Made by a program: the position numbers and the translations under genes. From contig JAWVFY010000309.1 in the NCBI GenBank assembly GCA_033855575.1, positions 1 through 34,240 of the forward strand: 34,240 nt of DNA, read 5' to 3'. How positions within the stretch are numbered: the first letter of the stretch is position 1; the number at the start of each line of letters is the position of its first letter. The stretch is from Solirubrobacteraceae bacterium (lineage in GTDB: Bacteria; Actinomycetota; Thermoleophilia; Solirubrobacterales; Solirubrobacteraceae). This document shows positions 15,293-27,165 of the stretch, piece after piece. Below the pieces are notes generated by a model. The model made no database searches. It was given only the letters and a program-made list of their open reading frames with translations, and was not told the origin of the DNA.

Positions 15293-17017
15293 TCAGGGTC
15301 TCTCCATGTCCGCCGCGTCCAGGTAGGCGCGCCACCCCCCGTGGGACGTCACGTCGATGGCGCCGTGTGTCGCGTAGCCCTCGCACACGAAGCCCGCGGC
15401 GTCTTCGCCGTCCTCGAGCGTGACGCGACCGATCCCCAGCGGGGCGGGTACGCCCTCGAGGAGCTCTCCGACCGCTGCCGGTGCAAGCTCCCAGACCTCG
15501 GCCTCCACGGCAGCTCCGCCGTGGATGGTTCGCACGAGCCCGGGCCGCGGTACGCCGGCGCCGGGGAGGGCGAACAGCCGGTAGACGGGCGCCGTTCGCG
15601 CACGCCGCACCAGCCGCGCGCCGCGCGAGGTCAGCTCGCCGTTGAGCGGCAGACCGCTCATATGCGCTCCGACGACAACCAGGCGCGTGGCTCCAGAGGA
15701 CGCGGGCCGAGGCTCGCCGCGCCACTCGGCGGCGAGGCTCATCAGCCGGTGGTCGTGGAAGGCCGGAGCGATCAGGCTGACCCCACCCGGGAGGCCGTCG
15801 GGGCGGCGGGGGCCGGGAACCGCGATCGCCGCGAGGTCGAGGAGGTTGACGAAGTTCGTGAAGCGGCCGAGGCGGGCGTTGACGCCCACCGGATCTGCCG
15901 CGACCTCGTCCAGGCGGGGGTGCCCGGGCGTGGTGGGAAGCAGGAGCGCGTCGGCCTGCTCCCAGATCGGGCAGGCGGCGCGGTGCAGCTCAGCGAGGCG
16001 GTGCTGGCCGGCGAACACATCGACGGCGCGCAGGCCCGCACCTGCCCGGACGATGGCCGCGACGGTGGGATCCAGCCCGTCAGGCTCGGCGGCCACAATG
16101 TCACCGAGATCGGCCGTCCGCTCGGAGACCCACACGTCGTAGAGCAGGTCGGCGGCCTCCAGGAGCGCTCCGATGTCCACGCGCACCAGCTCCCAGGTCG
16201 CGGCCGCTTCCCGGCATGCCTGCTCCCAGGCCGCGGCGGCGTCGGCCTCCTGGAAGATGAGCTGTCCATCGAGCGGAACGGCGACGCGGCCATGCCGCGG
16301 CGAGGTGGGAACCCGCGGCGCGCGGCTCCACGCATCGGCCGGGTCGAAGGCCGCGGCAACCGCGAGAACGGCCGCGGCATCTGCCACCGACCGGGCCAGG
16401 ACCGAGACGCAGTCCAGCCCGCGACAGGCGGGCAGGACCCCGCGATTCGAGACCAGTCCTCGTGTCGGCTTGATCCCCACGAGCTCGTTGAACGCGGCAG
16501 GGACCCGCCCCGAGCCAGCGGTGTCGGTCCCGAGCGCGAACATGACGTGCCCGAGCGCCACCGCCACGCCGGAGCCCGAGCTCGAGCCGCCGGGGACACG
16601 CTCGCCGTCGAACACGCAGGCCGGAGTCCCGTAGGGCGATCGCGTGCCGACCAGGCCGGTGGCGAACTGGTCCATGTTGGTCTTTCCGACGAGCAGAGCC
16701 CCGGCGCCCAGGAGACGCTCCACGACGGCCGCGTCACGGTCGGCCTCGCGGGCGAACCCCGGGCACGCCGCGGTCGTCGGGAGGCCGCCGACGTCGATGT
16801 TGTCCTTGACGGCGAAGGGGATCCCGTAGAGCGGCAGGCCTGGGTCTGCCGCGTCCAGGGAGCGGGCCGCGGCGCGGAGCGCGTGGGGGTCAACCAGGGT
16901 GATCCAGGCGGGGCCCGGGTCCTCGCCGAGGCGGTCGAGCACCTCGCCGGCAACCTCGCTGGGGCGACTGTGGCCGGCCCGGTAGTCGGCCAGCAGGTCG
17001 GCGATCGATCCGATCAC
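15293..17017 (-). CDS. Allophanate hydrolase (amidase-signature domain plus AtzF-type C-terminal domain)
   Basis: A 574-aa protein starting VIGSIADLLADYRAG. It has the amidase-signature blocks GIPFAVKDNIDVGGLPTTAACP and GGSSSGSGVAVALG, and a C-terminal domain RLVVVGAHMSGLPLNGEL..YRLFALPG. The GTG at 17015-17017 overlaps the TGA of the upstream gene (GTGA). The ORF-track N-terminal extension to 17575 is Arg-rich nonsense. Confidence 0.9.
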   Translation of the reverse strand: MIGSIADLLADYRAGHSRPSEVAGEVLDRLGEDPGPAWITLVDPHALRAAARSLDAADPGLPLYGIPFAVKDNIDVGGLPTTAACPGFAREADRDAAVVERLLGAGALLVGKTNMDQFATGLVGTRSPYGTPACVFDGERVPGGSSSGSGVAVALGHVMFALGTDTAGSGRVPAAFNELVGIKPTRGLVSNRGVLPACRGLDCVSVLARSVADAAAVLAVAAAFDPADAWSRAPRVPTSPRHGRVAVPLDGQLIFQEADAAAAWEQACREAAATWELVRVDIGALLEAADLLYDVWVSERTADLGDIVAAEPDGLDPTVAAIVRAGAGLRAVDVFAGQHRLAELHRAACPIWEQADALLLPTTPGHPRLDEVAADPVGVNARLGRFTNFVNLLDLAAIAVPGPRRPDGLPGGVSLIAPAFHDHRLMSLAAEWRGEPRPASSGATRLVVVGAHMSGLPLNGELTSRGARLVRRARTAPVYRLFALPGAGVPRPGLVRTIHGGAAVEAEVWELAPAAVGELLEGVPAPLGIGRVTLEDGEDAAGFVCEGYATHGAIDVTSHGGWRAYLDAADMERP

Positions 17018-18891
17018 CGCGAGCCGGCCGCCGCCCACGCGGCCCGCTCCTGCGCGAACGCGGCCTCGCGCTGGGAGCGGAACTCGGCGATCTCCGGCTC
17101 GTGGGCGGCCAGGAACCGCTCGTGCTCGAGCAGCGAGAAGCTGGCCGGCTCGATCACGGGTTCCCAGGTGCCTGCGGCGCTGCGCGCGCGCAGCTCCTCG
17201 AGCTCGGCTTCCTCGACGAGCTCGAACCGCAGCTGATCGAAGTGGCGCAACAACCACGGCGGCTCGCTCCGATCGAGCCAGACGGGGACGGTGCGGCCGA
17301 CCAGCTGATAGCCGCCGGGTCCCTCCATGCCGTAGACGCAGAGGAACGCTCCGCCGATCCCCACCGCGTTGGCGGGCGTCCAGGTCCGCGCCGGGTTGTA
17401 CTTCGTGGTCACCAGGCGATGACGGGGGTCCAGGGGTACGGCCACGGGAGCGCCGAGATAGACGTCGCCGAGCCCGAGCACGAGGTAGGACGCGGCAAGG
17501 ACGATCTGCTGGACCTCCTCTTCGGAGTCCAGGCCGTTGATGCGGCGGATGAAGTCGATGTTGTCCGGACACCACGGCGCGTCAGAGCGGACGGAGGTCG
17601 CGTAGCGCTCCACGGCCAGCATCGCCTGAGAGTGGCGCCACGCCAATGGCAGCGTGATGACACGACTGCTCACCTCCAGGGTCTCGGGCAAGGGAAGCGT
17701 CGCCTCGGTGTCGGTCACGAGATCGAGGAGTCGACGCGTCGGCAGGAGGCCGGGGTCGTGCTGGATGTGCAGCGAGCGCACGCCCGGCGTCAGATCGAAC
17801 AACCCCGGCACCCTCAACGTCCGCAGCGCCTCCTGCAACGCGTGGGCGCGGACACGCGAACGAAGCTCGAGCCCGGACTCCCCGAACTCCACGAGCAACG
17901 CCGCCTCCCCCGCCCGCCGATAGGTGACCGGCCCTCCCGGGGAGTCCCCCCGAGCATCGAGGAGCGGGGACAGCCCGGGACCCGCGATCGCCCGGCGATG
18001 GTCGTCGACCGCCACGAGCCGGACCTCGTCGCCGGCGCGCACCTGCCCGAGCTGCCAACGATCTTCAGCCACCACCTGACCGATCGCGACGAACCCCCCG
18101 AGGCTCGGACCGTCGGGACCGACGACAACGGCCATGTCCCCCGCCAGCATCACCGTGCCGACGCCGTAGGCGCTGTCGAGGATGTTCGACGGGTGCAGGC
18201 CCGCGTCACCGCCATCGGAGCGTGCCCAATCGGGTACCGGACCGGTCAGGCGCACTCCGGCACGGTCGGACTGGTGGTGCACGGTCCAGCCGGCGGTGAA
18301 GAGCTCCTCGAGCCCTTCGGGCGTCAGGAAGTCCGGGGCGCCGTGCGGGCCGGGCACGACGCGCAGGTTCCAGGCATTGCCCATCGGCACCGGGGGCTCA
18401 GGCTCCCCGGAACCCGCGGACCCGGGCTCCCCGAACGCCAGCGTGTCGCCCTTGCGCAACGCCCCACCGCCGAGACCGGCCGGCGCGAACACCGCCTGGC
18501 TGCCCATCGCCAACGCGGTGTCCACGCCTCCCGCGACGGCCAGGTAGGCGCGCATGCCAACGCTCCGGATCACGCCGAGCTTGACCAGTGCGCCCGCCGG
18601 CACGTCGATCGCCGACCACTGCGGTGCCGGCGTGCCATCGACCTCGACGATCAGCGGCGCCCCGGTCACCGCGATCCGAGCGCCGTCGGGAAACCGCAGC
18701 CGCGGTCCTGTCACCGTGACCTCCAGCCCGGCCGATTCGTCCGCGTTGCCGACGAGTCGGTTGGCCGTCCGCAGCGAGCGATCATCCATCGGTCCCGACG
18801 GCGGAACGCCGACCTCCCAGAGTCCCAGACGTCCCGGCAAGGCCTGCACCGTGGTCAGCGTCCCGGCCGATACGACCTCGGCGGCGCTCAC
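17014..18891 (-). CDS. Stand-alone carboxyltransferase (CT) domain of urea/guanidine carboxylase: KipA/PxpC-like A-B subdomains fused to KipI/PxpB-like C-D subdomains, with no biotin carboxylase and no BCCP
   Basis: A 625-aa protein. The N-terminal half, GTLTTVQALPGRLGLWEVGVPPSGPMDDRSLRTANRLVGN, is KipA/AHS2-like. The C-terminal half, with PWCPDNIDFIRRINGL and GIGGAFLCVYGMEGPGGYQLVGRT, is KipI/AHS1-like as in urea carboxylase. The GTG start at 18889-18891 overlaps the stop of the upstream DUF1989 gene, so there is no room for a BC domain. The protein ends ..AQERAAWAAAGSR without a biotinyl-lysine (AMKM-type) motif. Confidence 0.85.
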   Translation of the reverse strand: MSAAEVVSAGTLTTVQALPGRLGLWEVGVPPSGPMDDRSLRTANRLVGNADESAGLEVTVTGPRLRFPDGARIAVTGAPLIVEVDGTPAPQWSAIDVPAGALVKLGVIRSVGMRAYLAVAGGVDTALAMGSQAVFAPAGLGGGALRKGDTLAFGEPGSAGSGEPEPPVPMGNAWNLRVVPGPHGAPDFLTPEGLEELFTAGWTVHHQSDRAGVRLTGPVPDWARSDGGDAGLHPSNILDSAYGVGTVMLAGDMAVVVGPDGPSLGGFVAIGQVVAEDRWQLGQVRAGDEVRLVAVDDHRRAIAGPGLSPLLDARGDSPGGPVTYRRAGEAALLVEFGESGLELRSRVRAHALQEALRTLRVPGLFDLTPGVRSLHIQHDPGLLPTRRLLDLVTDTEATLPLPETLEVSSRVITLPLAWRHSQAMLAVERYATSVRSDAPWCPDNIDFIRRINGLDSEEEVQQIVLAASYLVLGLGDVYLGAPVAVPLDPRHRLVTTKYNPARTWTPANAVGIGGAFLCVYGMEGPGGYQLVGRTVPVWLDRSEPPWLLRHFDQLRFELVEEAELEELRARSAAGTWEPVIEPASFSLLEHERFLAAHEPEIAEFRSQREAAFAQERAAWAAAGSR

Positions 18892-19532
18892 GCGGCGGGC
18901 GTGACCACCAGCCGGATCGGCGTGGGGTCATAGCCGTTGCACGGGTTGTTCAACTGCGGGCAGTTGGAGATCAGGACCAGCGTGTCTCGCTGGGCCAGCA
19001 GGTCGAGATGCTTGCCGGGTGCCGAGATGCCGTCGGCGAACTCGAGCCCGCCGTCGGGGGTGAGCGGCACGTTCATGAAGAAGTTCACGTTGTGGCCGAG
19101 GTCGCGCTTGCTCAGCCCTCGGCCCCACACCAGCGCCTGGGCCAGGAACGTGTTGCGACACGCGTGCATGTGACGCGTGTGCTCGCCGTAGCGGACGACG
19201 TTGCTCTCCTGGGAGCACGCGCCACCCAGCGTGTCGTGACGCCCGCAGGTGTCCTCGACGATCGTCACCAGCGGCAATCCATCGACCGCCAGCAGCGACG
19301 AGCCGATCGTCAGGTAGGCGGAGCCCTGCTCTCGAAGCGTATCCACGGCGCTGTAGCGGTTGGCGTAGTCATGCGCGTCGAAGAACAGGGTGTCGACGGC
19401 CTGATTGCCATGCAGGTCGACGATCCGCAGCGTCTCGCCGGCATGCAGTTCGCCGATCCATCCGTCTCCGGCGGAGACCTCGAGCTCAAGCTTCGCCCGG
19501 GTGCCGGCGCCCTGCCTCTCGACCGTGTTCAC
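18888..19532 (-). CDS. DUF1989 / urea-carboxylase-associated family protein (carboxyguanidine deiminase subunit-like)
   Basis: A 214-aa protein starting VNTVERQGAG. It contains LRIVDLHGNQAVDTLFFDAHD and ISNCPQLNNPCNGYDPTPIRL. The GTG at 19530-19532 overlaps the upstream stop (GTGA), and GGAGG lies 9 nt upstream. Confidence 0.85.
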   Translation of the reverse strand: MNTVERQGAGTRAKLELEVSAGDGWIGELHAGETLRIVDLHGNQAVDTLFFDAHDYANRYSAVDTLREQGSAYLTIGSSLLAVDGLPLVTIVEDTCGRHDTLGGACSQESNVVRYGEHTRHMHACRNTFLAQALVWGRGLSKRDLGHNVNFFMNVPLTPDGGLEFADGISAPGKHLDLLAQRDTLVLISNCPQLNNPCNGYDPTPIRLVVTPAA

Positions 19533-20236
19533 GTGAGCGCAACCTCCAACTCGGTGGCCGCGAATCCGCGCTCGTTCTCCGGACAGGCCAGGCGCACCGG
19601 ATCGTCGGGGGCCGCCGGGCGGACGTCCGCGATGGCCAGCCTGACGGGCCGAGGCCGCCACGCGGGCTCGGGGTCGAGAGGATGTGGCACGGCGCAGGCC
19701 ACGACCAGCGTGTCCATCTCGAAGCGCAGCCGGACGTGCGCACCGGCGGGCGAGCTGTCCGAGACGAACGAGAGCGCACCGTCATCGCCGACCGCGATCC
19801 TGGTGAAGAAGTTGACGTTGGCGACGAGGTCGCGTCGGCCCAGCTCGTGCTTGGCCAGCTCGACGAGAAGCCCCTCACGGGCGCTGCGGCGCCACGCGTT
19901 GTGGCCCTCCTGGTAGCTCATCGTGCCCCAGCGTCCTGCGACGTGACCGGGCGTCGCGTGGCCGGTGATGGTGTCGTGCCAGCCGCACGTGTCCTCGACG
20001 ACCGAGACCAGCACACGCCCCATGTCGGAGTGGAGCGCCACGCCCTGGGTGATCCGCGAGCAGTGCTGCGCCTTGAGCGTGTCGGGCATGCAGTAGCGCT
20101 CGACCGGTTGATCCGCGCGATAGAAGAGCGCAGAGAGGTTGGCGCCCCCTTCGAGGTCGGTCAGCGTCATCGCCGTGCCACGCCGGCAGACCTGTGACCA
20201 GCTGGCGCCCCCCGGGAGGATCGCATCGACGATCAC
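19529..20236 (-). CDS. DUF1989 / urea-carboxylase-associated family protein (second carboxyguanidine deiminase subunit-like paralog)
   Basis: A 235-aa protein starting VIVDAILPGGASWSQV. It contains LTDLEGGANLSALFYRAD and VVEDTCGWHDT, which parallels IVEDTCGRHDT in the paralog. The GTG at 20234-20236 overlaps the stop of the MBL gene (GTGA), and GGAGG lies upstream. Confidence 0.85.
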   Translation of the reverse strand: MIVDAILPGGASWSQVCRRGTAMTLTDLEGGANLSALFYRADQPVERYCMPDTLKAQHCSRITQGVALHSDMGRVLVSVVEDTCGWHDTITGHATPGHVAGRWGTMSYQEGHNAWRRSAREGLLVELAKHELGRRDLVANVNFFTRIAVGDDGALSFVSDSSPAGAHVRLRFEMDTLVVACAVPHPLDPEPAWRPRPVRLAIADVRPAAPDDPVRLACPENERGFAATELEVALT

Positions 20237-21123
20237 GCCGCGACCTCCGATGCCGACCAGTCCACGGGCACGAACACGCTGAAGCCGTCGAACACCGCCT
20301 CGCGCACCTCGCCGCCCACGCAGTCGACCCCCGAACGCAGCGCGACCTCTCCTCCCAGCACGCGCGCGAACGCGTCGGCCTGCAGGGCCAGAAAGGCCGG
20401 TGGGACCTCCGTGCGCATGAAGTGCGAGCAGAACACACGATCCCATCGCTCCGACCGCGCCGCCAGCCCGGACAGCGACGCCTGGAGGGCGCCCAGGTCG
20501 GAGTCGGGCAACTGGGCATAGACCGGTCCGGTGTTGACGGTGTCGCCTCCGAACAGCATGCCCTCGCCCATGAGGTCCAGGCACACGCAGTCCGGCGAGT
20601 GGCCCGGGGTGTGGATGACGTCGAGCCGGCGGCCGCCGAGATCGATCGAGTCACCGTCCTCGATCACGCCCGTCGCCACGAACCCGTCGATGTGCCAGGC
20701 CGAACGGACCTCGGGCGTCAGCCGGCGCACGGTGTGCTGGTCTGCGATCAGGTGGAAATAGCGGTCGTCGAGCTGCTGGTAGTGCCCGAAGCAGTCCTCT
20801 TGGCCCGTCGCGTACTGGAGGTAGGCGTCCAGCAGCTCCGTGGGGACAGCCCGGGCCAGCCCATCCACCCCGAGCGGGTGGATCAGGATCTCCTCGAACT
20901 CGTCGTCGCCACCGATGTGATCGAAGTGGTGGTGCGTGTGGACGACGGTGACCGGCCGGTCCGTCAGAGCCTCGACGACGGGGCGGATCGCAGCAAAGCC
21001 GCAGCCCGTGTCGATCAGCGCAGCTCTGTTCTCACCGGCCACGAGCCAGGAGCAGACGTGCCCAGGCTCGGTGAGCTGCCACACACCCTCTGCGAGCTCC
21101 GTCACGGAGAACCACTCACGCAT
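20233..21123 (-). CDS. Metallo-beta-lactamase-fold hydrolase
   Basis: A 296-aa protein. HTHHHFDHIGG is the HxHxDH zinc motif, and TPGHSPD follows later. The ATG lies 3 nt downstream of the stop of the permease gene. Confidence 0.85.
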   Translation of the reverse strand: MREWFSVTELAEGVWQLTEPGHVCSWLVAGENRAALIDTGCGFAAIRPVVEALTDRPVTVVHTHHHFDHIGGDDEFEEILIHPLGVDGLARAVPTELLDAYLQYATGQEDCFGHYQQLDDRYFHLIADQHTVRRLTPEVRSAWHIDGFVATGVIEDGDSIDLGGRRLDVIHTPGHSPDCVCLDLMGEGMLFGGDTVNTGPVYAQLPDSDLGALQASLSGLAARSERWDRVFCSHFMRTEVPPAFLALQADAFARVLGGEVALRSGVDCVGGEVREAVFDGFSVFVPVDWSASEVAA

Positions 21124-21126
21124 CGA

Positions 21127-22128
21127 TCAGACCGTCCTGATGCGCGGGTCCGCCCACGCCTGCGCGACGTCGACGAGGAAGTTGACGACCACGTAGATCG
21201 TCCCGAGAAGCAGCGTCGCGCCGGTGATCGCCGGGAAGTCGGAGTAGGCGATCGACTGGTCGATGTAGAGGCCCAGTCCCGGCCACGCGAAGATCGACTC
21301 CACCACGACGATGCCTCCAAGCAGAAGCCCGAACTGCAGGCCCGCCATCGTGAGCGCAGGGCCGGCGGCGTTGCGCAGAGCATGGCGCAGCAGCACGGTG
21401 CGCTCCCGAAGGCCCTTCGACCGCGCTGTGCGAACGTAGTCCTCGCGCATCACCGTCGTCAGCGACGTGCTCAGCGTCCGCGCGATGGCCAGCGCGGGCA
21501 GCAGGGCCAGCGTCAGACCCGGCATCAGCAGGTGGCCCAACGCGCTGAAGAACACGTTCGGCTCGACGTGCAGCAGCGAGTCGATCAGCAGGAAGCGCGT
21601 CGGGCCGGTCGGCAGCACGAGGGTGTCGGTCACGCGCCCCGAGGCGGGCAGCAGATGCAGGCCCGAGTAGAGGACGAGGATCAGGATCAGGCCGAACAGG
21701 AAGCTCGGCACCGACGCCCCGCCGATGAGCGCGCGCCGGATCCAGCGGCCCGCCCGCCCGCCGCCCGCCAGCAGGAGCCCCAGCCCGAGACCGATCACGC
21801 CCGCCAGGAAGGCCGCGAACAGCGCCAGCTCCATGGTCGCCGGCGCGAAGGTGCCGAGATCGTCGACCACCGGGTTACGTGTGCGAAGGGAGCTCTGGAG
21901 GTCGCCGTGCAGCAGGCGGCCGGCGAACCGCACGAAGCGCTCGGGAAGCGGCCTGTCGTAGCCGAGCTCGTGCCGCTTGGCCGCGACGACCTTCGGTGAG
22001 GCGCTCGCGCCGACGACGGCTCGGGCCGGGTCGGCCGGCACCACGACCTCCAGCACGAAGGTGATGACCGCCAGCCCCGCCAACACGGCGACGAGGCCCG
22101 CGAACCGGCGTCCGAGGAGACCGGCCAT
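21127..22128 (-). CDS. ABC transporter permease, DppB/OppB-like
   Basis: A 333-aa protein starting MAGLLGRRFAGLVAVLAGLAVITFVL. It has multiple TM segments and the EAA-loop region REDYVRTARSKGL. The ATG at 22126-22128 overlaps the SBP stop by 1 nt (TGATG). Confidence 0.85.
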   Translation of the reverse strand: MAGLLGRRFAGLVAVLAGLAVITFVLEVVVPADPARAVVGASASPKVVAAKRHELGYDRPLPERFVRFAGRLLHGDLQSSLRTRNPVVDDLGTFAPATMELALFAAFLAGVIGLGLGLLLAGGGRAGRWIRRALIGGASVPSFLFGLILILVLYSGLHLLPASGRVTDTLVLPTGPTRFLLIDSLLHVEPNVFFSALGHLLMPGLTLALLPALAIARTLSTSLTTVMREDYVRTARSKGLRERTVLLRHALRNAAGPALTMAGLQFGLLLGGIVVVESIFAWPGLGLYIDQSIAYSDFPAITGATLLLGTIYVVVNFLVDVAQAWADPRIRTV

Positions 22129-23702
22129 CAGCCGGTCCCTCGCAGCGCCGCCAGGTCGACCGTCCAGGGATAGGCAGGCACCGCCTGCACGTTGGTCAGC
22201 TTGTTGCTCAGGACGAAGACGTTCTTGACGTCGCCGAGGAAGAACATCTCGTTGCTGTCGAGCACGCGCTGGCCGACCTGCGAGTACAGCGCGTCGGCCT
22301 TGGCCTTCGGCGCGCTCACTGCCTGGTCGAGCAGCTTGTCGATCGTCGGGTCCTTGAAGCCCAGGAAGTCCAGCCCTCCCGAGGAGTAGAAGAGGATCCG
22401 CGCCCACGTGTCGGGGTCGGCGGCGTCGGGGGTGTTGGTGACGAGCAGGAGGTCCGGGGCGTGCGCCAGATCCTTGACGTACCCGTAGACCTGCGGCAGC
22501 TGGACCTCCTTGAGCGTGACGTCGTAGCCCGCGGCCGAGAGCTGGGCCTGCAGCAGCTCGCTGGCTCTGCGCTGGACACCTGACTCGTCGGCGGTGTAGG
22601 CCAGCGTGATCGACCTCGTCTTCGCCTTGGCGCTGATCGCCTTCGCCGCCGCGGTGTTGGGCTTGTAGGGCAGGCCCGGCTGACTCGGCAGCAGGCCGGG
22701 CGGATAGGCGCCGGTGGACGCGGTGGCGGTGCCCGCGTACGCCTGCGAGACGAGCTGGCCGACGTCGAAGGTCGATCGCAGACCCGCGCGGATGGCCGGA
22801 TCCGAGAACGGAGCCCGGTTGGTGTTGACGTAGAGCAGCAGCCGCAGGTAGGAGCTCTCGCGCTTGACGGTCAGGTTGGACGGCAGCGAGCTGAGCTCCG
22901 AGGCGGGGAACGAGTGCAGGATCGCGTCAAGGTCGCCGTTCTGCAGCTCGAGGCGCTGCGTCCCGATGTCCGGCGTGATCTTGAAGATGATCTTCTGGAA
23001 GTAGGGAGCCGTTCCCCAGTAGCCGGGTGCGCGTGTCAGCACGTACTGGCGTCCACGGTCGAACGCCGTGATCTCATAGGGGCCGGTGCCGTCCTCGTGG
23101 GTGCGCAGCCAGGTCTGCGCGTGGTCTGATCCCGCGTGCTGCGTGATCGCGCCGGGCCCGATGATCTTGGGGCCCCAGCTCGAGGCCATGTAGGCCAGGA
23201 ACGGGTTGACCGGATGCTTGAGCTTGATGACGAGCTCGAGCGGCTTCGGCGTCAGCATGCTCTTGACCGGCTCAAGCATGTAGGAGGGTGCCTGGGCGAC
23301 CGCGAGACGTCGCTCGAAGCTTGCCTTGACCGCTGTCGACGTCAGCTTGCTGCCGTCATGGAAGCGAACACCGGGTCGCAGGTGGAACGTGTAGGTCAGC
23401 CGGTCAGGCGAGACCGTCCAGGACGCGGCCAGGCTGCCGACGATCCTCGACGAGCCCGGCGCGTACTTCAGCAGGCCGTCGTAGCTGTTGAGGATCACCG
23501 AGTTGCCCTCGATGTCGTAGAAGACGTCGGGATCGGGCACCGACATGTCGGCGAGATACGGGATGCGCAGCACGGCGTTGCTCGCGCCGGACGCGCCGCC
23601 CGCCGCTGTTCCGCCGACGCTGCTGGACGTGCTCTTTGCGCCGCACCCTGCTGCGAGCAGGGCCGCCAGGGTGAGCACGGCCAGGATCGAACGGTGCCTC
23701 AT
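22128..23702 (-). CDS. ABC transporter substrate-binding lipoprotein, family 5 (peptide/nickel/opine type)
   Basis: A 524-aa protein starting MRHRSILAVLTLAALLAAGCGA, a lipoprotein-type signal. Family-5 SBP blocks are SLAASWTVSPDRLTYTFHLRPGVRFHDGSKLT and GTGPYEI. The ATG at 23700-23702 overlaps the upstream stop (ATGA), and AAGGAA lies upstream. Confidence 0.9.
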   Translation of the reverse strand: MRHRSILAVLTLAALLAAGCGAKSTSSSVGGTAAGGASGASNAVLRIPYLADMSVPDPDVFYDIEGNSVILNSYDGLLKYAPGSSRIVGSLAASWTVSPDRLTYTFHLRPGVRFHDGSKLTSTAVKASFERRLAVAQAPSYMLEPVKSMLTPKPLELVIKLKHPVNPFLAYMASSWGPKIIGPGAITQHAGSDHAQTWLRTHEDGTGPYEITAFDRGRQYVLTRAPGYWGTAPYFQKIIFKITPDIGTQRLELQNGDLDAILHSFPASELSSLPSNLTVKRESSYLRLLLYVNTNRAPFSDPAIRAGLRSTFDVGQLVSQAYAGTATASTGAYPPGLLPSQPGLPYKPNTAAAKAISAKAKTRSITLAYTADESGVQRRASELLQAQLSAAGYDVTLKEVQLPQVYGYVKDLAHAPDLLLVTNTPDAADPDTWARILFYSSGGLDFLGFKDPTIDKLLDQAVSAPKAKADALYSQVGQRVLDSNEMFFLGDVKNVFVLSNKLTNVQAVPAYPWTVDLAALRGTG

Positions 23703-24601
23703 CGGGTGTTCCTTTGGTCGAGGTGACGGTTGATGGCGTCGCCCATGACGTTCGCGGTGAACGCAAGCAGCGCGACGGCCACGGCAGGTGCGAGCGGGAC
23801 CCACGGATGGCCGAAGAGGTAGTCCAGGCCCCGCGCGCTCATCGCCCCGAGCTCAGGTGCCGGCGCCGGCGCGCCCAGGCCGATGAACGACAGGGCGGCC
23901 AGCGCAAGGATCAGGTTGCCGACGTCCAGGGACATCGTGACGACCACCGGCGCGACGGCGCCCGGCAGGAGGTGGCGCAGGACCAGCCGTCTGCGGCTGA
24001 CGCCCGCCAGCCGCGCCGCCTCGGCGTGCGGCCGGACGGCGAGCGCGCGGACCTCGGCGCGAACGATCCGCGCGTACCAGGGCCACCACACGATGCTCAG
24101 CGCGAGCAATGTGTGAAACAGGCTGGGGCCCATCGAGGCCACGATGGCGATCGCCAAGACCGGCGCCGGCAGCGAGATGAACAGGTCGGTCAAGCGCATC
24201 AGGACCGTGTCGACGATGCCGCCCAGCGCGCCGGCCAGCGCTCCCACGAGCGCACCGAACGCCGCGCCGAGCGAGATGACGCCCAGCGCGGCGAGCCACG
24301 AGGTCCGCAGGCCGATCAGCACCCTCGACAGCACGTCGCGGCCGATCTCGTCGGTCCCCAGGAGGTTGTGCACCGAGAGCCCGTGCAACGGACCGGCAGC
24401 CGTGATCTGCAGCGCACTGTCAGGCGCCAGCAGCGGCGCGATCAAGATCACCAGCGTCAGCACCGCGACGGGTAGAAGGGCGCGGCGCAGGCCCGCGGGG
24501 CTCACGCTGCCGGACGGCGTGCCGCGACGCCGCACGAACGCGCCGACGGCTCCACGCGCCACGGCCGGTGCCGCGTCAGACGTCGTGGGCGCCATCGCCA
24601 T
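23699..24601 (-). CDS. ABC transporter permease, DppC/OppC-like
   Basis: A 300-aa protein starting MAMAPTTSD. It contains LLGTDEIGRDVLSRVLIG, typical of OppC/DppC, and has several TM segments. The ATG at 24599-24601 overlaps the ATPase stop by 1 nt. Confidence 0.85.
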   Translation of the reverse strand: MAMAPTTSDAAPAVARGAVGAFVRRRGTPSGSVSPAGLRRALLPVAVLTLVILIAPLLAPDSALQITAAGPLHGLSVHNLLGTDEIGRDVLSRVLIGLRTSWLAALGVISLGAAFGALVGALAGALGGIVDTVLMRLTDLFISLPAPVLAIAIVASMGPSLFHTLLALSIVWWPWYARIVRAEVRALAVRPHAEAARLAGVSRRRLVLRHLLPGAVAPVVVTMSLDVGNLILALAALSFIGLGAPAPAPELGAMSARGLDYLFGHPWVPLAPAVAVALLAFTANVMGDAINRHLDQRNTR

Positions 24602-26409
24602 CAGGCCGCCTCCACCCCGGGGACCGCGGCAAGGAGCTCGCACGTGTACGGATGGGTGGGCTGCGCGAAGATCTGCTCGACGGTGCCGCGCTCGACCACA
24701 CGGCCGCGCCGCATGACGATCACGTCATCGGCGACCGCCCGCGCGGCCGCCAGGTCATGGGTGACGAAGAGCAGGGCGATGCCGAGCGTCGCGCGCAGGT
24801 GGCAGAGCAGGTTGAGGACCTGGGCCGCCAGCGACACGTCCAGGGCCGACACCGGCTCGTCGCACGCCAGAAGAGCCGGGGGCACCGCGATCGCCCGGGC
24901 GATCGCGGCCCGCTGGCGCTGGCCGCCCGAGAGCCGCCGCGGCATCATCGCGGCCTGCTCCGCCGACAGGCCGACGGCCTCGAAGGCCGCGGCGACGCGT
25001 GCAGGTCGCTCCGTGGCCGGGACGCCGACCGCGGCGAGCCTCTCGGCAACCTGCTCTCCCACCGACATCCATGGTGTCAACGATGCGCCGGCGTCTTGGA
25101 AGATCATCTGCGGCGAGGCGCCGGGACCGAGCCGCATCGAGCCCGCTGTCGGATCCAGCAACCCCACGATCATCCGCAGCAGCGTGCTCTTGCCCGAGCC
25201 GGACTCGCCGACGACTGCCACCGACCCGCCGGGCGGGACGACGAGGTCGATCGCGTCGACGGCGCGCAGCGGCTCTGACGCTGATGCGAACGGATGGCGC
25301 CGGGGACGGGCGAACTCCCGTACGAGTCCCGTGACGGTCAGGGCGGGCTCGAGAGCCGTGCCCGGGATGGATGCGGGAGCCTCCTGAGCCGGCGGGCGAA
25401 GGAGCATGAGGTCGGGCCGCCGCATGTGCGGTCCGCCCTCGGGCCAGCGTGAGAGGACTCCGGGGTGGTGGCACTCGTCGCGCCGGGCGGCCGCGAGGTG
25501 GACGGGCACCGCCAGTGCGCAGCTGGCGTCGCTGGCTGGGCAGCGCGGCGCGAACGCGCAGCCCGCCATCGGCCGGCGCGGGTCGGGAGGCCGACCGGGC
25601 AACGTGGGCAGGTCACCGCCGGCGACCGTGCCGTGCAGGCTCGGGCGGCTGGCCAGCAGCCCGACGGTGTATGGGTGGCGCGCGCCGGCCAGGACCTCGG
25701 GGGTGGTCCCGGTCTCGACGATCCGGCCTGCGTAGGCGACCGCGATCCGGTCACAGATGCGCGCGGCGACACCCAGGTCGTGGGTGACCAGCAGCAGCGA
25801 CACGCCGCGATCGCGCGCGGCGGCCGCGAGCAGGTCGAGCACCTTGGCCTGGACCGTGACGTCGAGCGCGGTCGTCGGCTCGTCGGCGATGATCAGCCGC
25901 GGAGCCCGGGCCAGTGCCATGGCGATCATCACGCGCTGGCGCAGGCCGCCCGACAGCTCGTGCGGATAGGCCCGCGCCTTGACGTGCGGCTCCGGGATGC
26001 CGGTCGATCCAAGCAGCTCGCAGACCGCCTGGGTCGACAGTCCGTCGCCTGCCTCGTCCACCTGTCGCCCCACGCGCATGGTCGGGTTCAGCGAAGCCAT
26101 CGGATCCTGGAAGACCGCGCCGACGTAGGAGCCCCGTCGGGCGCGGCGAGCGTCCTCACCGGCGGACACCATGTCCTCGCCATCGAGACGGACCTCGCCC
26201 CGGATGGTCGGAGCGGGATCGCGCGGGAGGAGGCCGAGCGCGGTCAGTCCGAGCACGCTCTTGCCAGATCCCGACTCGCCGACCAGGCCGAGGACCTCCC
26301 CCTCGGCGATCGCCAACGTCGCTCCACGCAGGGCGTGGACGTCGCCGTCACGAGCAGCGAACGTGACGTGCAGGTCGCGCACGTCGAGAACGGGGACCGG
26401 CCGAGTCAA
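24601..26409 (-). CDS. Fused double-NBD ABC ATPase (DppD-DppF type)
   Basis: A 602-aa protein. It has two Walker A motifs (both GESGSGKS), two signature motifs (LSGGLRQR and LSGGQRQR) and two HPYT oligopeptide-type C-terminal motifs. The TTG start at 26407-26409 overlaps the upstream TGA (TTGA). Confidence 0.9.
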   Translation of the reverse strand: MTRPVPVLDVRDLHVTFAARDGDVHALRGATLAIAEGEVLGLVGESGSGKSVLGLTALGLLPRDPAPTIRGEVRLDGEDMVSAGEDARRARRGSYVGAVFQDPMASLNPTMRVGRQVDEAGDGLSTQAVCELLGSTGIPEPHVKARAYPHELSGGLRQRVMIAMALARAPRLIIADEPTTALDVTVQAKVLDLLAAAARDRGVSLLLVTHDLGVAARICDRIAVAYAGRIVETGTTPEVLAGARHPYTVGLLASRPSLHGTVAGGDLPTLPGRPPDPRRPMAGCAFAPRCPASDASCALAVPVHLAAARRDECHHPGVLSRWPEGGPHMRRPDLMLLRPPAQEAPASIPGTALEPALTVTGLVREFARPRRHPFASASEPLRAVDAIDLVVPPGGSVAVVGESGSGKSTLLRMIVGLLDPTAGSMRLGPGASPQMIFQDAGASLTPWMSVGEQVAERLAAVGVPATERPARVAAAFEAVGLSAEQAAMMPRRLSGGQRQRAAIARAIAVPPALLACDEPVSALDVSLAAQVLNLLCHLRATLGIALLFVTHDLAAARAVADDVIVMRRGRVVERGTVEQIFAQPTHPYTCELLAAVPGVEAA

Positions 26410-27011
26410 ACGCCGACCCTGGCGGGCTCTGCGGCGCCGAGGGCACTGAGCAGCTCGGCGGTCGTGACGAGGCAGTCGCGCTGCAGGTAGCGCATCGCCC
26501 GCAGAGACGCCTCGTGCGCCTCCGGCGAGGAGCCGCCGGTGGCGTCAGTGACGACCTTGCAGTGGTAGTCGTGTTGATGGGCGTCGGCGAACGTGTAGTG
26601 GACGCAGACGTCGGTCAGACCGCCGAGAAGCACGACGGTCTCGATGCCCAGCGACTTCAGGACGAGCTCGAGCTCGGTGGCGAAGAACGCCGAATAGCGG
26701 CGCTTGCGGATGTGGTACTCGTCGGCCCGCGGCTCGAGTCCGCTCGCGAGCTCGGTCAGCTCGTCGCCTTCGAGGCAGTGCACGGTCTCGCTGCCGTCGA
26801 GCTCGCGGCCGAAGTCGAGCAGCGTGCGCTTGTGGACCTCCTGAATGAAGATCGGCGGGACCGCCGCCTCACGGGCCGCCGCCAGGATCTGGCGTGCTCG
26901 ATCGACCCGCTCGGGCCCACCGGGCATCAGCGGGATGCCGCACTCGACATCGAGCTCGGCGGACCGCTGGACATCCACCAGGATGAGAGCCGTGTTGCCG
27001 ATCAGTTCCAA
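26406..27011 (-). CDS. Isochorismatase-like cysteine hydrolase (amidohydrolase)
   Basis: A 201-aa protein. Candidates for the D-K-C triad are ALILVDVQ (Asp), HIRKRRYSAF (Lys) and GGLTDVCVHYT (Cys). The TTG start at 27009-27011 lies 6 nt after AAGGAG (27018-27023). It is the first gene after the riboswitch. Confidence 0.85.
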   Translation of the reverse strand: MELIGNTALILVDVQRSAELDVECGIPLMPGGPERVDRARQILAAAREAAVPPIFIQEVHKRTLLDFGRELDGSETVHCLEGDELTELASGLEPRADEYHIRKRRYSAFFATELELVLKSLGIETVVLLGGLTDVCVHYTFADAHQHDYHCKVVTDATGGSSPEAHEASLRAMRYLQRDCLVTTAELLSALGAAEPARVGV

Positions 27012-27023
27012 GCCAAGCTCCTT

Positions 27024-27063
27024 AGAAATCAGAAAAGCCCGGCAGACGTGATGTCTCCCGGGC
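27024..27063 (-). terminator. Intrinsic terminator acting as the riboswitch expression platform
   Basis: The RNA reads GCCCGG-GAGAC-AUCAC-GUCUG-CCGGGC followed by UUUUCUGAUUUCU. The 5' arm (GCCCGG, + strand 27058-27063) is part of the conserved AAAAGCCCGGGAGA 3' end of the aptamer, so the aptamer and the terminator are mutually exclusive. Confidence 0.7.
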
Positions 27064-27165
27064 TTTTATCCCTCCGTGTCAGCGCGGCTATGTCGATGCC
27101 GGCCTGCCCTCTCGGACCAGACCCGCCGGTTGCCCGGCGGCGGAACCCTAGGGCGAACGTCACGA
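27054..27165 (-). promoter_or_regulatory. Guanidine-I (ykkC/yxkD) riboswitch aptamer
   Basis: The minus-strand RNA is CGUUCGCC-CUAGGGUUCCG-CCGCCGG-GCAA-CCGGCGG-GUCU-GGUCCGAGAG-GGCAGGCCGGCAUCGACAUAGCCGCGCUG-ACACGGAGGGAUAAAAGCCCGGGAGA. All three hallmark conserved blocks of the ykkC class are present in the correct order: CUAGGGUUCCG at 27141-27151, GGUCCGAGAG at 27109-27118, and ACACGGAGGGAUAAAAGCCCGGGAGA at 27054-27079. There is also a GNRA-capped P1a hairpin. Confidence 0.88.

Follow-up and report, generated by a model that had tools for sequence, protein, structure and literature searches.

A guanidine riboswitch- and importer-linked isochorismatase-like hydrolase from a Solirubrobacteraceae bacterium, a candidate amidase upstream of guanidine breakdown

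A contig from a Solirubrobacteraceae bacterium (GenBank assembly GCA_033855575.1, contig JAWVFY010000309.1, positions 1 to 34,240; this whole stretch of 34,240 nucleotides is hereafter the window) carries a gene for an isochorismatase-like cysteine hydrolase (ICH) that follows a Guanidine-I riboswitch and opens an operon of import and guanidine degradation genes. As judged from its sequence, the product is a cytoplasmic cysteine amidohydrolase with the isochorismatase-like fold, and it belongs to a distinct, uncharacterised subfamily. The reading we favor, at a probability of about one half, is that this enzyme would act as an amidase on an imported N-carbamoyl- or N-acyl-guanidine, which it would split into ammonia and carboxyguanidine or guanidine, or else into guanidine and an acid, and would thereby both induce and feed its operon.

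The hydrolase and its subfamily

The protein (201 amino acids) matches the Pfam Isochorismatase family (PF00857) with 141.1 bits against a cut-off of 27; the match covers residues 7-183 and positions 1-171 of the 175 in the profile. Homologues begin at the same position, with the pattern M-[EQ]-L-x-G. An initial annotation of this DNA had called the gene an ICH enzyme with an Asp-Lys-Cys triad, and this holds: the open reading frame is exact, and the motifs it had pointed out, LILVDVQ, IRKRRYSAF and LTDVCV, are present and hold Asp13, Lys103 and Cys136. None of the three residues varies among 23 close relatives, each is at least 98% conserved in 84 family members from several phyla, and in the alignment they fall on the catalytic positions of E. 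coli PncA, RutB and the assayed guanylurea hydrolase GuuH. By this alignment, Cys136 is the predicted nucleophile and Asp13 the general base, with Lys103 completing the triad. A structure prediction, which had been proposed as a check, agrees as far as the fold is concerned. The AlphaFold2 model built on the family alignment (pLDDT 83.1, pTM 0.83) places Asp13 at the end of strand 6-12, Lys103 at the end of strand 99-103 and Cys136 at the start of helix 134-146, and the best 50 matches listed in a Foldseek search of the Protein Data Bank (PDB) are all ICH-family structures, with TM-scores of 0.65-0.76; the model thus has the three-layer alpha/beta fold of the superfamily. No second ICH gene was found in the genome to which the window belongs (a 2.68-Mb assembly, 74% complete).

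In an IQ-TREE phylogeny of 95 sequences, the relatives of this hydrolase form a separate clade (85 rows, SH-aLRT 95), with long branches to every characterised reference; this was a quick tree, in which deep nodes are unreliable and non-orthology is clear. A literature search found no paper tying ICH enzymes to guanidine riboswitches. The subfamily is an undescribed, riboswitch- and importer-linked branch of a known superfamily, and it is from these links that we infer its function.

Riboswitch leader and operon

The Guanidine-I aptamer is the single RF00442 copy in the 74%-complete genome, and the hydrolase gene starts 42 nucleotides past its end. The aptamer is followed by a terminator-like hairpin (27066-27034; -30.8 kcal/mol, z = -4.27, with none of 200 shuffled sequences as stable), the 5' arm of which reuses the 3' end of the aptamer; a simple consensus terminator scan did not flag this hairpin. 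An aptamer whose 3' end is shared with a terminator arm is the usual layout of guanidine ON switches, and an ON switch is therefore implied here. Because aptamer and hairpin lie directly 5' of it, the hydrolase is the first gene after the switch, just as the initial annotation had it. The combination that marks a member of the Guanidine-I regulon, namely an above-threshold aptamer directly upstream on the same strand together with an expression platform, is present here and likewise in related loci.

The genes that follow on the same strand encode, in this order, an ATPase, an OppC-like permease, a solute-binding protein (SBP) and an OppB-like permease of an ABC importer, a metallo-beta-lactamase-fold (MBL) hydrolase, two DUF1989 proteins of the carboxyguanidine deiminase (CgdAB) type, a carboxyltransferase-only (CT-only) relative of urea/guanidine carboxylase, and allophanate hydrolase (Table 1). 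The stop codon of the hydrolase overlaps the start of the ATPase gene by 4 nucleotides (26406-26409).

Genomic context across the family

The scan of species-representative genomes gave more than 554 matching stretches, from which 80 loci were retained; synteny was scored by tblastn with ten proteins of the window, with 82 distinct loci counted. The subfamily occurs in Actinomycetota, Chloroflexota and Pseudomonadota and on one cyanobacterial plasmid; among cultured carriers of an orthologue are Svornostia abyssi J379 and Paraconexibacter antarcticus 02-257. Two layouts recur. In Thermoleophilia and a metagenome-assembled genome (MAG) of Chloroflexi, the riboswitch is followed by the genes for the hydrolase, ATPase, OppC, SBP, OppB, optionally MBL, CgdAB, CT and allophanate hydrolase; in Mycobacterium, Frankiales, Streptomyces and relatives, whose proteins are 53-59% identical to that of the window, the order is ATPase, OppC, OppB, hydrolase and SBP. 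In 57 of the 82 loci, the hydrolase gene has Opp-type ABC genes on its own strand no farther than 6 kb away; 28 loci have CgdAB or CT genes within 11 kb, and 43 have a Guanidine-I aptamer in the fetched stretch (within about 10 kb). Every Thermoleophilia-type locus with a detected aptamer, and one Chloroflexi locus, has it directly upstream of the orthologue, and at L058 and L060 it lies upstream of a transporter-plus-hydrolase operon. Aptamers were found with our own covariance model, R1, built from four close aptamers, and weak matches were re-checked with Rfam, which confirmed seven of eight; the remaining one, a 26-bit R1 match at L047, was not confirmed and is not counted. No aptamer was found in Mycobacterium-type loci or in several proteobacterial ones.

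The module that accompanies the hydrolase differs from lineage to lineage. A Gaiellaceae locus (L038:308-8826), in which neither R1 nor Rfam detects an aptamer, has, after the hydrolase-plus-importer unit, genes for an arginase-family protein and an MBL protein in place of those for CgdAB, CT and allophanate hydrolase. In a proteobacterial locus (L055:5646-14813), the hydrolase is encoded by the last gene of an importer operon of PotD type, and directly 3' of it come an aptamer of the Guanidine-I class and genes for an NMT1-type SBP, a permease and, again, an arginase-family protein. Both arginase-family neighbors were assigned by Pfam only and are possible guanidinases. An operon of genome G073 (locus L093, C1 8176-13700) has the order CgdA, CgdB, CT-only, allophanate hydrolase and hydrolase, the start of the last overlapping the end of the allophanate hydrolase gene, and neither an ABC importer nor an aptamer was detected in it. 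Genome G025 (locus L094, C6 7765-11910) has a high-scoring aptamer followed by the C-terminal half of OppB and then by CgdAB and CT; by its gene content, this operon is apparently a deletion derivative, with the hydrolase and the greater part of the importer gone. Guanidine is the intermediate common to the carboxylase route and the route through an arginase-family guanidinase. Because the two routes have little else in common, the hydrolase is most simply placed upstream of guanidine.

The initial annotation had proposed an imported substrate that feeds guanidine breakdown. Importer linkage in several phyla and recurrent Guanidine-I and degradation modules bear this out and, as far as gene neighborhoods can tell, argue strongly that the substrate of the enzyme is imported and is processed ahead of guanidine breakdown.

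Some Patulibacter-type relatives (L043:7938-11921 of Patulibacter defluvii, L024 and L014), at 61-66% identity, have no ABC or guanidine genes beside them; in one case the gene has a copper amine oxidase gene on one side and an MFS transporter gene on the other, and a LacI regulator is encoded nearby. The substrate of these relatives may differ. On a plasmid of Gloeocapsopsis dulcis (L091, NZ_CP119970, 8559-12331), a 46%-identical member has on one side an ABC importer with a 347-residue binding protein and on the other a nitrile hydratase operon comprising an alpha subunit gene, a split beta subunit gene and accessory genes. This arrangement suggests a route from nitrile to amide to acid; because nitrile hydratase makes amides, such a neighbor fits an amidase role.

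Metal motif and charged lid

Glu58-x-His60 and His78 of the hydrolase correspond in the alignment to D-W-H ... H of E. coli PncA and are at least 98% conserved among the 84 family members. In PncA structures, the Asp-x-His ... His residues are ligands of Zn or Fe, and the lid over the substrate cavity is hinged at the two histidines (PMC3025910). The hydrolase thus has a putative metal site of nicotinamidase type and, in keeping the E-x-H ... H motif, its sequence resembles the nicotinamidase/CSHase-related branch of the superfamily. The residues between the two histidines, 61-77 (KRTLLDFGRELDGSETV), form a lid with the motif D66-x-G-R-E-L-D-G-x-E75, framed by His60 and His78, in which D66, G68, R69, E70, L71, D72, G73 and E75 are at least 98% conserved, as are R104, R105, Y106 and S107 after the catalytic Lys103. 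In the M. tuberculosis enzyme, MtPncA, Trp68 and Phe13 stack on the pyridine ring (PMC3025910). Aromatic lid and pocket residues of this kind were not found in the hydrolase, whose lid is acidic. A charged instead of an aromatic lid points to a polar, probably cationic substrate, and an acidic lid in which D66, R69, E70, D72 and E75 are invariant would suit a guanidinium ion better than an aromatic ring.

Table 1. Hydrolase gene, its leader and the remaining genes of the operon, with positions in the window
Feature	Position	Strand	Basis
Guanidine-I aptamer	27053..27162	-	Rfam RF00442, 78 bits vs gathering 63, E = 1.9e-12, full model
Expression platform: terminator-like hairpin 27034-27066 and U-rich tail	27024..27066	-	RNA fold
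Shine-Dalgarno AAGGAG of the hydrolase gene	27018..27023	-	Read from sequence, 6 nt 5' of TTG
ICH hydrolase gene	26406..27011	-	201 aa, TTG start; Pfam, alignment, AlphaFold2 model
Triad codons of the hydrolase	Asp13 26973-26975, Lys103 26703-26705, Cys136 26604-26606	-	Alignment
Putative metal ligands of the hydrolase	Glu58 26838-26840, His60 26832-26834, His78 26778-26780	-	Alignment
Charged lid of the hydrolase	Residues 61-77	-	Alignment
ABC ATPase with two fused nucleotide-binding domains, Opp/Dpp/Nik type, translationally coupled to the hydrolase	24601..26409	-	Pfam: two ABC_tran and two oligo_HPY
OppC-like permease	23699..24643	-	Pfam BPD_transp_1; NCBIfam Opp2C/NikC-like below cut-offs
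Family-5 solute-binding protein	22128..23702	-	SBP_bac_5, 220 bits
OppB-like permease	21127..22128	-	BPD_transp_1 and BPD_transp_1_N
MBL-fold hydrolase, optional partner	20233..21123	-	Family profiles; missing from most sister operons
Two DUF1989 genes (UAAP1/UAAP2, CgdAB carboxyguanidine deiminase type)	18888..20236	-	TIGR03425 290 bits, TIGR03424 304 bits, both above cut-offs
CT-only relative of urea/guanidine carboxylase	17014..18891	-	CT_A_B and CT_C_D only, no biotin carboxylase or biotin carboxyl carrier domain; 637-aa frame
Allophanate hydrolase	15293..17017	-	TIGR02713, 680 bits vs 511; Amidase and AH_C domains

Proposed function

In the mechanism that we propose, the co-transcribed ABC importer would take up a small N-acyl- or N-carbamoyl-guanidine, Cys136 would attack its carbonyl carbon, and hydrolysis of the acyl-enzyme would yield one of two product pairs: ammonia and carboxyguanidine, the latter breaking down into CO2 and guanidine, or else guanidine and an acid. 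Free guanidine would bind the aptamer, block the terminator and raise expression of the whole operon (product induction), and CgdAB, the carboxyltransferase protein and allophanate hydrolase would turn the product into ammonia and CO2. The reaction is probably metal-assisted. By analogy with GuuH, guanylurea is the simplest candidate substrate; oxalyl-guanidine or another acyl-guanidine is equally possible, and one that bears a carboxylate would fit the family-5 SBP and the invariant Arg104-Arg105 better.

The superfamily offers precedents for such chemistry: GuuH, BiuH, TrtA, RutB and CSHase, all of them ICH members, hydrolyze the amide of a terminal carbamoyl group (PMC9800807). GuuH is known from Pseudomonas mendocina strain GU, with a second enzyme (BB_00025) in strain MET; our reference was the latter, an assayed guanylurea hydrolase encoded on plasmid pMET-2 (BB_00025; PMC9800807), whereas the BiuH references were sequences taken from a PDB search, no plasmid record named BiuH having been found. 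Like the hydrolase of the window, GuuH is an isochorismatase-like cysteine hydrolase, and its host has the route through guanidine carboxylase, CgdAB and allophanate hydrolase; ABC importer genes flank its gene on pMET-2, and its products, guanidine and ammonia, are of the class proposed here. On the other hand, that importer is of NitT/TauT type, and GuuH itself belongs to the BiuH/TrtA clade, has the insertion typical of it, lacks the second metal histidine, and has no reported riboswitch control. BiuH and TrtA (PDB 6azo, 6xjm, 6xix/6xj4) share the fold and the D-K-C triad with our hydrolase, and they too hydrolyze a terminal carbamoyl amide, with products that enter the allophanate hydrolase step; however, Foldseek identity to them is only 24-28%, and they lack its metal triad and acidic lid.

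For product induction, the closest counterpart is the MgdH/MgdL operon of Vreelandella boliviensis, where the two enzymes demethylate methylguanidine to guanidine and are controlled by a Guanidine-I aptamer that binds guanidine and not methylguanidine (PMC12508155). As we propose for our operon, a guanidine-only riboswitch controls guanidine-producing enzymes, an importer and a carboxylase pathway (PMC12508155). The two systems differ in that MgdH and MgdL are a 2-oxoglutarate (2OG) dioxygenase and a lyase that remove a methyl group, whereas our enzyme would be a cysteine amidase, and in that the V. boliviensis operon has another type of importer and a full-length carboxylase where ours is CT-only.

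Clusters with a 2OG oxygenase were also seen next to members of our family. In Frankiales-type actinobacteria (L062:13102-16786, L054 3424-216 on the minus strand, L052, L057 and L085), an aptamer is followed by genes for a 2OG-Fe(II) oxygenase (DIOX_N), a 207-residue protein with a weak HRI1 match, a luciferase-like monooxygenase and an FMN reductase, and the cluster adjoins hydrolase/ABC genes. In gene architecture, the only respect compared, the first two genes resemble the MgdH/MgdL pair. A riboswitch-linked 2OG oxygenase was considered as an obligatory partner of the hydrolase and rejected, as no homologue was found in the genome of the window (74% complete) or in two cultured carriers.

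The following points weigh against an amidase that releases guanidine. The substrate of an uncharacterised subfamily is read here from genomic context, and the hydrolase is, at 31% sequence identity, no closer to GuuH than to other ICH enzymes. The ligands of family-5 SBPs are usually metal complexes or molecules no smaller than a dipeptide, and guanylurea would be unusually small among them. None of the three associated features (Opp-type ABC genes, CgdAB/CT or aptamer) is present in 18 of the 82 loci, five of these 18 being short contigs, and Mycobacterium-type clusters carry TetR genes and no detected aptamer; in view of these loci, members at about 55% identity may have other substrates. 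Finally, the MBL, PTE-family, creatininase-family, Amidohydro_1 and allantoicase partners found in some loci could mean that the route has two steps and that guanidine is released by an enzyme other than the hydrolase. Of the initial proposal that this enzyme may perform the committing hydrolysis of an imported substrate, the import and the upstream position are supported by context, and descent from enzymes of BiuH/GuuH type is not.

Alternative explanations

The alternative that survives best, although we consider it unlikely, is that the hydrolase performs the second step after ring opening: a metallo-hydrolase would open an imported cyclic nitrogen-rich compound, the ICH enzyme would remove a carbamoyl or amide group, and guanidine would be released otherwise, by another enzyme or by spontaneous decay. 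Candidates for the cyclic compound are creatinine, hydantoin or allantoin analogues and guanine-oxidation products. The partners of the hydrolase speak for such a route. A 496-residue reading frame in an alphaproteobacterial MAG (L046:9887-11377) fuses an ICH domain (residues 43-223) to an MBL domain (residues 271-475) that is 32% identical to the MBL protein of the window, and this locus also has genes for CgdAB, allophanate hydrolase and a 2OG oxygenase. MBL genes are present at L035, L038, L053, L054, L062 and L078 as well as in the window operon, although the MBL protein of the window has no informative relative among PDB structures. PTE-family genes abut the hydrolase gene at L029 and L089, the latter also with a RidA gene; Amidohydro_1 and allantoicase genes occur at L076 and an allantoicase gene at L047. 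In a Pseudonocardiales MAG (L058:17-3260), genes for a 2OG oxygenase, a creatininase-family hydrolase and a glutamine synthetase-like ligase lie directly 5' of the aptamer of the ABC/hydrolase operon, and formamidase, too, is among the neighbors of the hydrolase in the family.

Comparison with solved structures leads in the same direction. N-carbamoylsarcosine amidase (CSHase) and the CSHase-related protein of Thermoplasma acidophilum (1nba, 3eef, 26st), together with the ICH hydrolase 3hb7 from Alkaliphilus, are the best solved-structure matches of the hydrolase: 3hb7 and 3eef both score 66 bits with the sequence alone and 77-80 bits with the family profile, the 80 bits being those of 3eef. 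Both share the D/E-x-H ... H motif, and CSHase comes after the ring-opening step by which creatinine, itself a guanidino compound, is degraded. However, identity within this group is only about 26-29%, the lid sequence is unrelated, and 3hb7 and 3eef are entries without an assigned physiological substrate. Lactamase activity is known among ICH enzymes as well (PMC5353710).

Against ring opening, most Solirubrobacterales operons keep the hydrolase and have neither MBL nor any other ring-opening enzyme, so that the hydrolase must manage alone there, and a 2OG oxygenase of the associated type was not found in the 74%-complete genome or the two cultured carriers, as said above. Moreover, the partners vary by lineage, and thus no single cyclic substrate is indicated. 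The neighbors of the hydrolase, formamidase and nitrile hydratase among them, also speak for an amidase role in the breakdown of nitrogen-rich compounds.

Far less probable is a nicotinamidase/pyrazinamidase-like enzyme, or an amidase unrelated to guanidine that is merely co-regulated in general nitrogen scavenging. Like PncA (E. coli b1768; structures of the M. tuberculosis and P. horikoshii enzymes, PMC3025910), the hydrolase is compact, at about 200 residues, and has the Asp/Glu-x-His ... His motif hinging a lid of 17-20 residues, the YSAFF segment found in E. coli PncA and the nucleophile motif TD-x-C-V; its gene is also the sole ICH gene detected in a 74%-complete genome. The sequence scores are nevertheless low: the NCBIfam PncA model (NF008623), with a cut-off of 174, gives 35.1 bits. 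In the tree, no reference lies farther away than PncA, whose branch is the longest. The lid is charged where that of PncA is aromatic (PMC3025910), and the context is guanidine metabolism and import instead of NAD salvage. As for an unrelated amide, the association with Guanidine-I aptamers and degradation genes is too consistent across Actinomycetota, Chloroflexota and Pseudomonadota.

We give little credence to a third possibility, that the ABC importer carries a metal (nickel) or a metallophore for a metal-dependent hydrolase and that the operon acts on guanidine itself. The best NCBIfam matches of the transporter parts are of nickel type (338 bits for the fused ATPase, above the NikD cut-off of 319, though this score is summed over its two nucleotide-binding domains), the hydrolase has a putative metal site, and an arginase-family gene comes after the module at L038; operons for Ni-dependent guanidinases under Guanidine-I control are known (PMC12186494). 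The SBP, however, scores 114 bits with the NikA model, whose cut-off is 393. Its best PDB matches, at 80-114 bits, are generic binders of peptides, glutathione or nickel; NikA is no nearer to it than the others, and they give no clue to the ligand. The importer is of PotD type at L055, and on the cyanobacterial plasmid the neighboring importer has a small binding protein of 347 residues in place of one of Opp/Nik type. No Ni chaperone genes are present, and we know of no precedent for an ICH cysteine hydrolase acting on guanidine itself. With an SBP that is not NikA-like, the nickel importer was rejected.

The last alternative, the narrower reading of the initial annotation, makes the hydrolase a true orthologue of the BiuH/TrtA/GuuH clade. 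Fold and triad are the same, BiuH (NF050097) is the best NCBIfam match, and Rhodococcus BiuH (6xjm) is among the top PDB matches. Yet that match is weak (62.5 bits against a cut-off of 370, over residues 86-174 only), and the hydrolase scores similarly low with the RutB model (TIGR03614; 56.9 bits against 378) and lower still with that for YcaC (24 bits against 310). GuuH reaches 227 and 220 bits with two BiuH structures, 190 with TrtA and 114 with RutB, whereas our hydrolase reaches 65 and 42, 37 and 38 bits with the same PDB entries. The phylogenetic placement that had been proposed as a check puts GuuH and BiuH in one clade (SH-aLRT 98), near RutB, and the hydrolase outside it, in the clade of its own described above; the hydrolase also lacks an insertion of about 15-20 residues (HTREGHRP...NKRWRS) that the BiuH/GuuH/RutB group has. 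Orthology to BiuH, TrtA, GuuH or RutB was therefore rejected and is, in our view, hardly credible. In keeping with this, none of rutA, rutC, rutD, rutE and rutF was found by Pfam in the operon.

Clear orthology to a nicotinamidase or a true isochorismatase, which would have argued against the initial annotation altogether, was not found either: besides the low PncA score, the true isochorismatases EntB (PDB 2fq1) and PhzD match with 28 bits (E = 1.7e-5) and 31 bits, respectively, and there are no siderophore genes near the hydrolase gene. Thus, this enzyme may have guanylurea-type activity, by analogy and not by descent.

The CT-only carboxylase and the source of guanidine

A more specific version of the amidase reading concerns the CT-only protein. 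In CT-only lineages, the amidase might make carboxyguanidine directly from imported guanylurea for CgdAB and allophanate hydrolase, so that the operon would mineralize its substrate without ATP or biotin; the CT-only protein would then handle carboxyguanidine as a partner and would not act as a carboxylase. We tallied CT genes in small samples of related genomes from the class and the phylum. Five of the seven genomes with a short CT gene have a hydrolase of our type (G000, G067, G073, G217 and G256), the other two being G025, with its deletion remnant, and G230; none of the eight genomes with only a full-length carboxylase has one. On the other hand, the hydrolase cluster at L084 has the gene for a full-length carboxylase as its neighbor. 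A strict link between the hydrolase and a CT-only carboxylase is therefore suggestive but contradicted by this counter-example and, because the genomes are few and related, the carboxyguanidine bypass is speculative only, and we regard it as improbable.

Free guanidine is the ligand of four riboswitch classes, but its natural sources are largely unknown (PMC12186494, PMC12623156). The subfamily described here, tied to an importer and to varying guanidine modules, is a clonable candidate for the production of guanidine from an environmental precursor. Naming the substrate of this hydrolase and the ligand of its SBP would name a guanidine precursor, and the identity of the substrate could explain the working of operons with a carboxyltransferase-only carboxylase. 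If guanylurea were indeed the substrate, the enzyme could also be of practical use in the removal of guanylurea or dicyandiamide.

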